Sequence record: SRR31156797_8083
Direction: 5' to 3' (one strand)
DNA: 62,084 bases
Part shown: positions 50,704 to 52,845 of the stretch, piece by piece
Numbering within the stretch: the stretch's first letter is position 1
Layout of the letters: each line of letters opens with the position of its first letter
Position numbers and translations under genes: made by a program
Notes under the pieces: model-generated
The model's database searches: none
What the model was told of the DNA's origin: nothing
Seen by the model: the letters and a program-made list of their open reading frames with translations, nothing else

Positions 50704-50819
50704 ATAAACCTCATTCGTTAGGCGACTCATAGCCATGTAATGCACTTTGCCCCGGTCCGCAATGGCAGGAACCTTTCCTTTCTTATCGTGTTCCTTGCTG
50801 CGGCCCAATGATAAACCCC

Positions 50820-50848
50820 TTGACGGAGTCGGGAACATGGGGCAGTCT
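50820..50848 (+). promoter_or_regulatory. Putative sigma-70 promoter for the leader/paaK transcript
   Basis: TTGACG-N17-CAGTCT (weak -10); predicted +1 falls at or near the leader ATG at 50856. Confidence 0.4.
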
Positions 50849-50855
50849 CTCCTTT

Positions 50856-50909
50856 ATGAAAAATTTCCTCGTATTTCGCTCCTTTTTCTTCTTTATGTGC
50901 CCCCAGTAG
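50856..50909 (+). CDS. Phe-rich attenuator leader peptide MKNFLVFRSFFFFMCPQ
   Basis: 6 of 17 codons are Phe, 4 of them consecutive (ttt ttc ttc ttt); lies just 5' of alternative stems and a terminator. Confidence 0.8.
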   Translation: MKNFLVFRSFFFFMCPQ

Positions 50910-50911
50910 GT

Positions 50912-50984
50912 GGCTCGTGGAGTATTTGGAGCGGTAAAAACGCTAATCAGACCACGGGCCGAAAGGACCGTGGTTTTTTATTTT
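50912..50984 (+). promoter_or_regulatory. Transcription attenuator (antiterminator/terminator)
   Basis: Terminator accacgg-g-cc GAAA gg-a-ccgtggt + U tract (50951-50984); ggctcgtgg (50912-50920) can instead pair with ccacgggcc (50952-50960). Confidence 0.8.
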
Positions 50985-51026
50985 GTCAACATGGGCCGAT
51001 TAAGGCCGCGCAAGGAGGTTCTAGGG

Positions 51027-52331
51027 ATGATTTATGATGTAAAGAATGAAACCCTGCCCAGAGAAGATCTGGAAAAAATACAGCTCCGAAGGCTCCAAGC
51101 TCTCTGTGAACGAGTATATGCCAATGTCCCGTTCTATAAGAAAAAATTTGACGAGAAAGGTGTCAAGCCTCAAGACATCAAAAGCCTGAAAGACCTCACC
51201 CTGCTCCCATTCACCGTCAAGCAGGATCTTCGCGATCAGTACCCCTTCGGCCTCTTCTCGGTCCCTAAAGACCAGATTGTCCGTCTCCATTCTTCATCCG
51301 GCACCACCGGCACAGCGACAGTCGTTGGCTACACAAAGCGTGACATCAAGAACTGGGGCGAACTCATGGCCCGGTCCTTCATGGCAGCAGGAGCGTCGGC
51401 CAGTGACACCGTACATAACGCATACGGTTACGGTTTGTTCACAGGCGGCCTTGGCGCGCACTACGGCGCAGAAGCCCTAGGGGCGACAGTCGTTCCCATT
51501 TCCGGTGGCGCCACCCGCAGACAGGTTACCCTGCTCAAGGATTTCGCACCGGATGTCATCTGCGCCACTCCATCTTACGCCCTGTTCCTGGCAGAAACCG
51601 GCGAGGAAATGGGCATCGATATCAAGAAGCTCCCCTTACGCATCGGTATTTTCGGTGCTGAGCCATGGACCAACGAAATGCGTCTTGAAATCGAGAAAAA
51701 ACTTGGCATCAAAGCCATCGACATCTACGGCCTGTCCGAAATCATGGGACCTGGTGTTGCTATTGAATGTCTTGAAGCTCAAGACGGACTGCACATTCAG
51801 GAAGATCACTTCCTTGCGGAAACGATCAACCCCGAAACCGGCGAGCCTGTTGCTCCGGGAGAGGAAGGCGAGTTGGTCTTCACGACACTGACCAAAGAAG
51901 GCATCCCGCTCATCCGTTATCGGACACGCGACCTGACCACCTTGAACACCACGCCCTGCAAATGTGGTCGTACCACTGCCCGCATGAAGCGTGTAACAGG
52001 TCGTTCGGACGACATGCTCATCATCCGCGGCGTCAATGTCTTCCCGTCTCAAATCGAATCAATACTCATTGAAACCGAAGGCTTAACTCCACACTACCAA
52101 CTTATTGTTGATCGCAAGGGCAACCTTGATACTCTGGAAGTTCAAGTGGAAGTCAACGAGTCCATTTTCTCCGATGAGATTAAGAATTTACAACGCGTCG
52201 AATCAAAGGTAATGAAAAACATTAAAGAATTCCTCGGTGTCACCGCCAAGGTAAAATTGGTCAGTCCCAAAGAGATTGAACGCTCTGCGGGTAAAGCCAA
52301 GCGCATCATCGACAAGAGAAAAGAAGGCTAA
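51027..52331 (+). CDS. paaK: Phenylacetate-CoA ligase family protein
   Basis: [68 protein letters not shown]. Confidence 0.92.
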
Positions 52332-52357
52332 CGCCTCCAATTCACAAGGAGATCATT

Positions 52358-52789
52358 ATGAAAGTAGATCAACTCTCCATATTTCTGGAAAATCGAGCCG
52401 GACGTCTCGCTGAAGTAACCCGTATTCTTTCCGAGGCTGGCGTAAATATCCGCGCATTGTCTCTGGCAGACACTTCGGATTTCGGCATCCTGCGCCTAAT
52501 TGTATCCGACTTTACCAAAGCCAAGGACACATTAAAGGAAGCAGGCTTTACCGTTGGTCGCACCTCGGTTGTTGCCGTCAAGGTTTCCGACGATCCTGGT
52601 GGATTGCACGCCATTCTGAGCATGCTTCAAAATGCCGGTATTAATGTGGAATACATGTACGCATTTGTACAGCAAAGCGGTGACTCGGCGGTGCTTATCT
52701 TCCGTTTTGACCGCACCGACCAAGGCATTGAATTGTTACAGAAAAACAATATTGCCATCATCCCCGGCGACAAACTCTACGCCATGTAG
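52358..52789 (+). CDS. Tandem ACT-domain protein
   Basis: [23 protein letters not shown] and [13 protein letters not shown]. Confidence 0.9.
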
Positions 52790-52810
52790 TTCTCACAACT
52801 TCAAAAGAAT

Positions 52811-52845
52811 AAAGGGTGAAAGCATATTGCTTTCACCCTTTTTTT
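52811..52845 (+). terminator. Intrinsic terminator closing the paaK-ACT operon
   Basis: aaagggtgaaagc atatt gctttcaccc ttttttt. Confidence 0.9.

Follow-up and report, generated by a model that had tools for sequence, protein, structure and literature searches.

The stretch of DNA analyzed here, the 62,084-nt sequence SRR31156797_8083 (called the window below), carries at positions 50820-52845 a two-gene operon, paaK-ACT, which encodes a phenylacetate-CoA ligase-like protein and an ACT-domain protein. Between the promoter-like site and paaK lies a candidate leader-peptide attenuator that would sense phenylalanine (Phe) through a short upstream open reading frame (uORF). An earlier reading of the same letters, referred to here as the original prediction, had singled out this leader. 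Its parts are as follows.

50820-50848, plus strand: promoter-like site, seen in the sequence, with -35 TTGACG at 50820-50825, a 17-nt spacer and a weak -10-like CAGTCT at 50843-50848
50856-50909, plus strand: leader-peptide uORF of 17 codons, MKNFLVFRSFFFFMCPQ and a stop, with ATG at 50856 and TAG at 50907-50909
50883-50894, plus strand: putative regulatory codons TTT TTC TTC TTT (four Phe), by direct reading
50876-50904, plus strand: region 1, which forms the 5' side of the 1:2 (anti-antiterminator) helix and overlaps the final Phe codons, from the minimum free energy (MFE) fold
50909-50934, plus strand: region 2, whose partner is either region 1 or, via the core 50911-50920 (uggcucgugg), the terminator 5' arm, from folds and covariation
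50930-50944, plus strand: small hairpin AGCG/CGCT enclosed by the antiterminator, from folds
50950-50984, plus strand: regions 3 and 4, the predicted intrinsic terminator, with a hairpin at 50950-50975, a GAAA loop and a U tract at 50974-50984, from reading and folds

The anatomy given in the original prediction stands when the sequence is read again. The Phe-rich uORF at 50856-50909 is there, with Phe at 6 of its 17 codons (50865, 50874, and the run of four in series at 50883-50894). So is the proposed nine-base-pair match, including one G-U, between ggctcgtgg (50912-50920, two bases past the uORF stop) and ccacgggcc (50952-50960), to which a tenth pair, U50911-G50961, can be added. The third element, a GAAA-capped terminator with a U tract that shares ccacgggcc, is also confirmed: this segment doubles as the terminator 5' arm, and the hairpin (about -17 kcal/mol, with one internal G.A mismatch) is followed by the tract TTTTTTATTTT, which ends at 50984, 42 nt 5' of the paaK ATG (51027). 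In other leaders a stem of differing sequence occupies the position of the small hairpin (seen by eye in the alignment). The MFE fold of the whole leader has -42.8 kcal/mol and z = -3.2, and 1 of 200 shuffles was equally stable. This fold contains a further helix, 1:2, in which 50876-50904 pairs with 50909-50934 and the uORF stop codon lies at the loop, so that the leader has the full set of 1:2, 2:3 and 3:4 helices. A consensus promoter and terminator scan listed neither the uORF promoter nor the attenuator terminator, the former because its -10 is too weak and the latter because of the internal G.A mismatch.

This layout suggests a familiar scheme. Transcription would start at or beside the AUG of the uORF, making the uORF leaderless. 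With plentiful Phe-tRNA, the ribosome would reach the stop codon and cover region 2, the 3:4 terminator would form, and the transcript would end near 50980. With scarce Phe-tRNA, the ribosome would stall on the four Phe codons and hold region 1; region 2, left free, would pair with the terminator 5' arm (2:3), and RNA polymerase would read on into paaK. If the uORF were not translated at all, 1:2 and 3:4 would form and transcription would terminate. We infer translation of the uORF, its start site and its response to Phe from these features, and the terminator is predicted to be used; the arrangement fits induction of paaK-ACT by Phe starvation. The attenuator layout is supported by conservation, covariation, folds and related leaders, each taken up below, and we consider it highly probable that the leader is a ribosome-mediated transcription attenuator that senses charged tRNA-Phe and controls paaK-ACT.

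Of the checks proposed along with the original prediction, four were computational, namely a search for Phe-rich uORFs in orthologous leaders, a search for covarying stems, the folding of both conformers, and a look through the genome for iorAB and for paa catabolic genes. All four came out in its favor, the first as follows. The nearest genome (G001), whose PaaK is 100% identical in the genome search and 99.8% identical by tblastn, was used as the reference; its leader is identical to that of the window across the 240 nt compared. Orthologs of the ligase are present in 41 of 41 relatives, and upstream DNA was read at 30 loci (24 in the genus, 6 in other families of the order). In 20 of the 24 genus leaders there is a uORF of 15-21 codons in which the in-frame ATG, a Phe run (FFFF, FFFFF, FFF, FFQF or FFWF) and the stop are all kept. 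Residues outside the Phe run vary between species and are not conserved between genera, and Trp or Tyr is mixed into the run in some leaders, such as L013, L014, L025 and L035.

Phe-rich uORFs also occur in other genera. An aromatic-rich uORF was found at 2 of the 6 loci read outside the family but within the order (L025, L026). Within the family, the region upstream of the ortholog was inspected for 64 other genera, each represented by a single genome, and a clear Phe uORF with a terminator was present in four (G058, G063, G073, G083). R1, a covariance model built on the paaK leader, gave matches in 17 of 151 family genomes at E <= 0.001. Beyond the known genus paaK leaders there were 16 matches: five Phe-rich leaders before paaK of other genera (two of which overlap the four genera just mentioned), seven before ADH synthase genes, and four that were partial or unclear. 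Searched with R1 at E up to 10, G001 yielded no second copy, only weak terminator-like matches. Among 80 more distant ortholog loci from many phyla, candidates were found in two (L223 and L231, from Desulfobacterota metagenome-assembled genomes outside Desulfovibrionales); in both, a Phe-run uORF, e.g. MRGRLFYFRFFFFSGFSF in L231, and a terminator-like hairpin precede the distant paaK ortholog. To judge from their sequences, these two cases point to repeated or ancient use of Phe-run control. The closest named relative in the distant scan was an uncultured Pseudodesulfovibrio sp., with a PaaK identity of 84%.

The position of the uORF relative to the promoter is also conserved. TTGAC starts 35-37 nt 5' of the uORF ATG in 32 of 33 paaK leaders, the distance being exactly 36 nt in 25 of them, and a comparable spacing (36-39 nt) is seen in 28 of 30 leaders of ADH synthase 1, a gene discussed below. 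An SD-like (Shine-Dalgarno-like) tetramer precedes the uORF in only 2 of the 33 paaK leaders, and the uORF of the window has no Shine-Dalgarno sequence. The transcription start is accordingly placed, as a prediction from sequence, at or within 1-2 nt of the AUG; since a Shine-Dalgarno sequence is lacking and the uORF begins 36 nt past the conserved TTGAC, the uORF is probably leaderless. Regulatory uORFs of this type are described in mycobacteria, where leaderless polycysteine uORFs act as attenuators (available text of bioRxiv 10.1101/834739), and leaderless leader peptides are described in Deinococcus deserti (available text of PMC4007540). As in those cases, the uORF here would be regulatory, on an mRNA that begins at its AUG, and rich in codons for the sensed amino acid. 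The phyla, the amino acid and the targets are different, however, and the leaderless start is here a prediction from promoter spacing.

A divergent nitroreductase ORF on the minus strand is listed as starting from an ATG at 50838 and would then overlap the paaK promoter; an in-frame ATG at 50736 looks the likelier start (window positions 50734-50838, minus strand).

Covarying stems were sought in an alignment of 26 leaders (A1), and compensatory changes were found in both the antiterminator and the terminator. In the antiterminator helix 87.3% of cells are paired (slid controls, 28-44%) and 4 of 10 pairs, or 14 cells, show changes on both sides; for the terminator helix the figures are 96.5% and 3 of 10 pairs. 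None of 500 shuffles reached the covariation score of either helix, but the sequences in A1 are not independent, and one of them served to define the helices, so that the shuffle and slide controls are inflated. Compensation is illustrated by GCTCGTGG/CCACGGGC, which has become GTCCGTGG/CCACGGAC in L025 and TTCCGTGG/CCACGGAA in L026. Changes that keep region 2 paired with the terminator arm would be needless for a plain terminator. They therefore argue against a quite different explanation, in which the uORF product is a small hydrophobic peptide with a function of its own, and the hairpin serves either as a leaky terminator that is always active or as a determinant of RNA stability. The peptide is indeed hydrophobic, and the terminator is kept even where the Phe run has been lost, but the lack of conservation outside the run between genera counts against it, and we rate this explanation as very improbable.

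Both conformers were folded for a set of 29 Phe-type leaders, comprising 22 from A1 and 7 from other genera. In this set the CGTGG core of region 2 follows the final Phe codon of the run by 18-32 nt, except in L025, a mixed Phe/Tyr/Trp leader, where the distance is 44 nt; the uORF stop lies within -10 to +12 nt of the core (from 10 nt after it to 12 nt before it) in all 29. A ribosome was represented in ViennaRNA by masking the leader either as far as 12 nt beyond the last Phe codon, with the terminator 3' arm not yet made, or as far as 12 nt beyond the stop. With the first mask the antiterminator formed in 29 of 29 leaders, 7-12 nt of the terminator 5' arm pairing with region 2, and with the second the terminator formed in 29 of 29, the behavior that the attenuator calls for. 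When nothing was masked the antiterminator was absent in 15 of 29, and in the folds that were inspected region 2 was held by the 3' part of the uORF. All of these folds, masked and unmasked, are equilibrium models.

Are the Phe codons read as codons, or are they simply a pyrimidine tract? The latter would be the case if a trans-acting factor or ligand (an RNA-binding protein, a small RNA or a small molecule) set the switch by acting on the tract or on the antiterminator, the uORF being incidental. The scarcity of SD-like tetramers noted above lends this some weight, as does the fact that translation of the uORF is something we infer, and lineages without a Phe run retain the terminator. Several observations nevertheless make it improbable. 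When the longest pyrimidine tract of each of 33 uORFs (29 Phe-type and 4 run-less) was scored, 59 of the 82 C residues fell at codon position 3. The Phe runs of the window and L002 differ by a synonymous change, with TTT in L002 where the window has TTC. Position likewise speaks against an incidental uORF: in 32 of 33 leaders the in-frame ATG keeps a set spacing from the promoter, and all 29 Phe-type leaders have their stop close to region 2. No Rfam family reaches threshold in the leader.

The strongest argument that the leaders work at the level of codons comes from the sequences of related leaders in G001, which were located through their genes or by pattern. 2-Amino-3,7-dideoxy-D-threo-hept-6-ulosonate (ADH) synthase catalyzes the first step of the 6-deoxy-5-ketofructose 1-phosphate (DKFP) route to aromatic amino acids. 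Up to three ADH-synthase paralogs occur per genome in the genus, with all three in 34 of 41 genomes searched, and G001 has three (TIGR01949, 406 bits against a cut-off of 299). The gene for paralog 1 is monocistronic and is preceded by a Phe-only leader, MHNITTRFFFFFSFYFKNACGLGVH, and a terminator (C1 ~1699640-1699822, L092/L081). An FFFF-type leader precedes this gene in 30 of 30 genus orthologs, one of them in the form FFF-S-FFF. Paralog 2 heads an operon that continues with dehydroquinate (DHQ) synthase II, pheA, aroA, tyrA and trpE through trpB, and its leader, MNSTTVFNASFSNFTFWYWYSHARGLGRGAL, which is also followed by a terminator (C1 ~516665-516900, minus strand; L090, L163), mixes Phe, Tyr and Trp (FWYWY); the consensus FYF-W/G-YW-Y/F holds in 20 of 20 genus members. 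The third paralog in G001 has no leader. A fourth leader, with the Phe run MNTYQNRFSFFFFFSFRFFRSACGLGVYV and a terminator (C1 ~1394155-1394320; L196, L205), lies ahead of the gene for a 48-aa 'symporter small accessory protein' and of that for a sodium:solute symporter (SSS), which might transport Phe or an aryl acid. The other paaK paralogs of G001 (46% and 42% identity) have no aromatic leader.

The codon content of the G001 leaders thus tracks the product of the genes they control, and a U/C tract bound by a protein or ligand would not explain this. In particular, the leader of the all-aromatic operon swaps part of the U/C tract for TGG and TAT codons, a change that makes sense only at the codon level. 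The arrangement recalls E. coli, in which AroF, AroG and AroH place the first step of the aromatic pathway under isozyme-specific control: here too the first enzyme comes in several paralogs that answer to different end products. Unlike in E. coli, the three ADH-synthase paralogs have a Phe-only leader, a Phe/Tyr/Trp leader and no leader, respectively, and control would operate at the RNA level, not by allostery or repressors.

Some results weigh against a Phe-sensing attenuator before paaK and must be set beside this evidence. Four of the 24 genus leaders (L017, L018, L020, L021) lack the Phe run and keep promoter, uORF and terminator, and the same is true of a homologous leader in another genus (G075, L127), which implies that the Phe codons are dispensable in some lineages. 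In 59 of the 64 family genomes sampled there is no leader before the ortholog, several of them keeping the same promoter-like motif. Runs of four TTY codons are not in themselves unusual, 112 being found in G001 as compared with 124 for the reversed-pattern control, i.e. chance frequency, and the case consequently rests on the combined layout and its conservation. Finally, in 14 of the 29 Phe-type leaders the unmasked fold contains the antiterminator instead of the 1:2 helix. In these 14 the stop often lies beyond region 2, and the folding model implies that a terminating ribosome would be the sole anti-antiterminator.

The run-less uORFs (L017 of G009, L018 of G018, L020 of G004, L021 of G003, and L127 of G075) are rich in Pro, Arg and His, with for example a shared PRHF. 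The four genus species among them keep FFFF leaders before ADH synthase 1. The run-less leaders may either have decayed or have been retuned to a different signal.

The mechanism proposed is the textbook attenuation of pheL, trpL and hisL. As with the enterobacterial pheL-pheA and pheM-pheST, there is a short uORF with a Phe run, a choice between 1:2, 2:3 and 3:4 helices, and an intrinsic terminator ahead of the structural gene. The differences are several: the target is an aryl-acid CoA ligase with an ACT protein instead of pheA or pheST, the uORF lacks a Shine-Dalgarno sequence and seemingly lies at the 5' end of the transcript, and the hosts are Desulfovibrionaceae, not Gammaproteobacteria. 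Nor is there detectable homology to the Rfam family Phe_leader (RF01859), which aligns over its full length (model 1-125) but at 22.8 bits and E 0.37, against a gathering threshold of 55, so that the leader is not a member. Groups of pheL leaders are treated in the accessible text of PMC3082878, and the RegPrecise RNA collections are, according to that of PMC3840689, built on Rfam families. In view of the sub-threshold Phe_leader score, annotation based on Rfam gathering thresholds would miss the element. A search of the literature on Desulfovibrio and related organisms found neither leader peptides nor attenuators reported upstream of paaK or the aromatic genes; it did not extend to most subscription journals or to supplements, and an earlier description may exist. 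Rodionov et al. 2004 (PMC545781) does not describe such leaders: neither 'leader peptide' nor 'phenylalanine', 'aromatic' or 'tryptophan' appears in its text. The noteworthy features are the gene controlled, the small regulon that it points to, and the likely leaderless uORFs.

The controlled operon consists of two genes and a closing hairpin.

51027-52331, plus strand: paaK-like aryl-acetate (phenylacetate)-CoA ligase, 434 aa, with Pfam AMP-binding and AMP-binding_C_2
52358-52789, plus strand: protein with a pair of ACT domains, 143 aa, Pfam ACT_8 at 2.1e-30
52811-52841, no strand assigned: bidirectional terminator-like hairpin closing the operon, a perfect 14 pairs with T runs on both strands

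paaK has a strong Shine-Dalgarno sequence, AAGGAGG, at 51012-51018. A longer, GTG-started ORF was considered for paaK and rejected; the alignment to the PaaK profile begins at residue 8 of the ATG-started protein. Given its Pfam domains and its match to the phenylacetate-CoA ligase PDB 2y27 (E 4.7e-154), the ligase is by sequence a member of the PaaK family in the broad sense. The ACT protein matches PDB 2f06, a 'conserved hypothetical protein' (E 3.5e-28), and may be an amino-acid-binding regulator. Its gene directly follows paaK in 18 of 18 loci checked. A predicted complex of PaaK with the ACT protein scored 0.19, the mark being 0.34, a result that counts neither for nor against binding. 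The hairpin downstream of the ACT gene could terminate transcription in both directions.

What might such an operon be for? Genes for paaK-like ligases, ACT partners and oxidoreductases of the indolepyruvate:ferredoxin (IOR) type are very common in anaerobes, and they are usually annotated as belonging to phenylacetate catabolism, even where their hosts cannot degrade aromatic rings. Induction by a shortage of Phe would be the wrong direction for catabolism. The alternative is that the ligase activates exogenous phenylacetate for salvage into Phe: phenylacetate would be converted to phenylacetyl-CoA, reductively carboxylated by an IOR-type oxidoreductase, and transaminated to Phe. The genome content, which the original prediction had suggested searching, agrees with this. 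G001 (100% complete) has one IorA above cut-off (745.8 bits against 650.9) and no match to PaaA (TIGR02156), the ring-oxygenase subunit of the aerobic phenylacetate catabolon (paaABCDE with paaK) and the one subunit searched for. Together with the Phe-shortage logic, these two results make phenylacetate salvage the most economical reading, to which we give about an even chance. There is a precedent in Methanococcus maripaludis, which is reported to convert aryl acids to aromatic amino acids through IOR (Porat et al. 2004, cited in PMC4162585). The parallel is that Phe could also be formed from phenylacetate in an anaerobe that has both the DKFP/ADH-synthase pathway for de novo synthesis and an IOR; unlike the present hosts M. 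maripaludis is an archaeon, and the part of that source available to us mentions no attenuator.

Two observations count against salvage. The score of PaaK with TIGR02155 is 629.3 bits, just under the equivalog cut-off of 646.3, which leaves its substrate uncertain; and iorAB is unlinked to paaK-ACT in G001 and has no aromatic leader there. Both would fit another reading, in which the attenuator is real and senses Phe but the ligase uses some other aryl or acyl acid, or serves another purpose in amino-acid starvation, and the ACT protein may have an unrelated regulatory role. The Trp and Tyr residues in the runs of L013, L014, L025 and L035 hint in the same direction, at a broader aryl specificity, and the literature search produced no biochemical data. 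On the other hand, the closest relatives of solved structure are true phenylacetate-CoA ligases, Phe-only leaders of the same kind precede a biosynthetic isozyme and a transporter in G001, and the IOR route from aryl acids is described in M. maripaludis, at least in the accessible part of PMC4162585. Such a non-salvage role seems rather unlikely to us, with salvage of phenylacetate still the preferred role for the operon.

An attenuator records the condition in which the cell wants the product, and here that condition would be a shortage of charged tRNA-Phe, the same as for the first-step isozyme in G001. The signal shared with a biosynthetic isozyme argues directly, and in a way that can be tested, for a role of the operon in supplying Phe. 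A broader proposal, which we put forward tentatively, is that in Pseudodesulfovibrio and its relatives related leaderless attenuators may form a Phe-starvation regulon that switches on three routes to Phe at once, while a sister Phe/Tyr/Trp leader governs the aro-phe-tyr-trp operon, and the paaK-ACT genes of anaerobes would be biosynthetic. If this is correct, the three routes would be de novo synthesis (via a dedicated ADH-synthase isozyme), uptake (via the SSS symporter and its accessory protein) and reductive salvage of phenylacetate (via PaaK-ACT feeding IOR). The widespread paaK-ACT pair of anaerobes would then be a biosynthetic module and not a catabolic one. The attenuator by itself would already extend the regulatory repertoire of sulfate reducers to leader-peptide attenuation, probably on leaderless transcripts.

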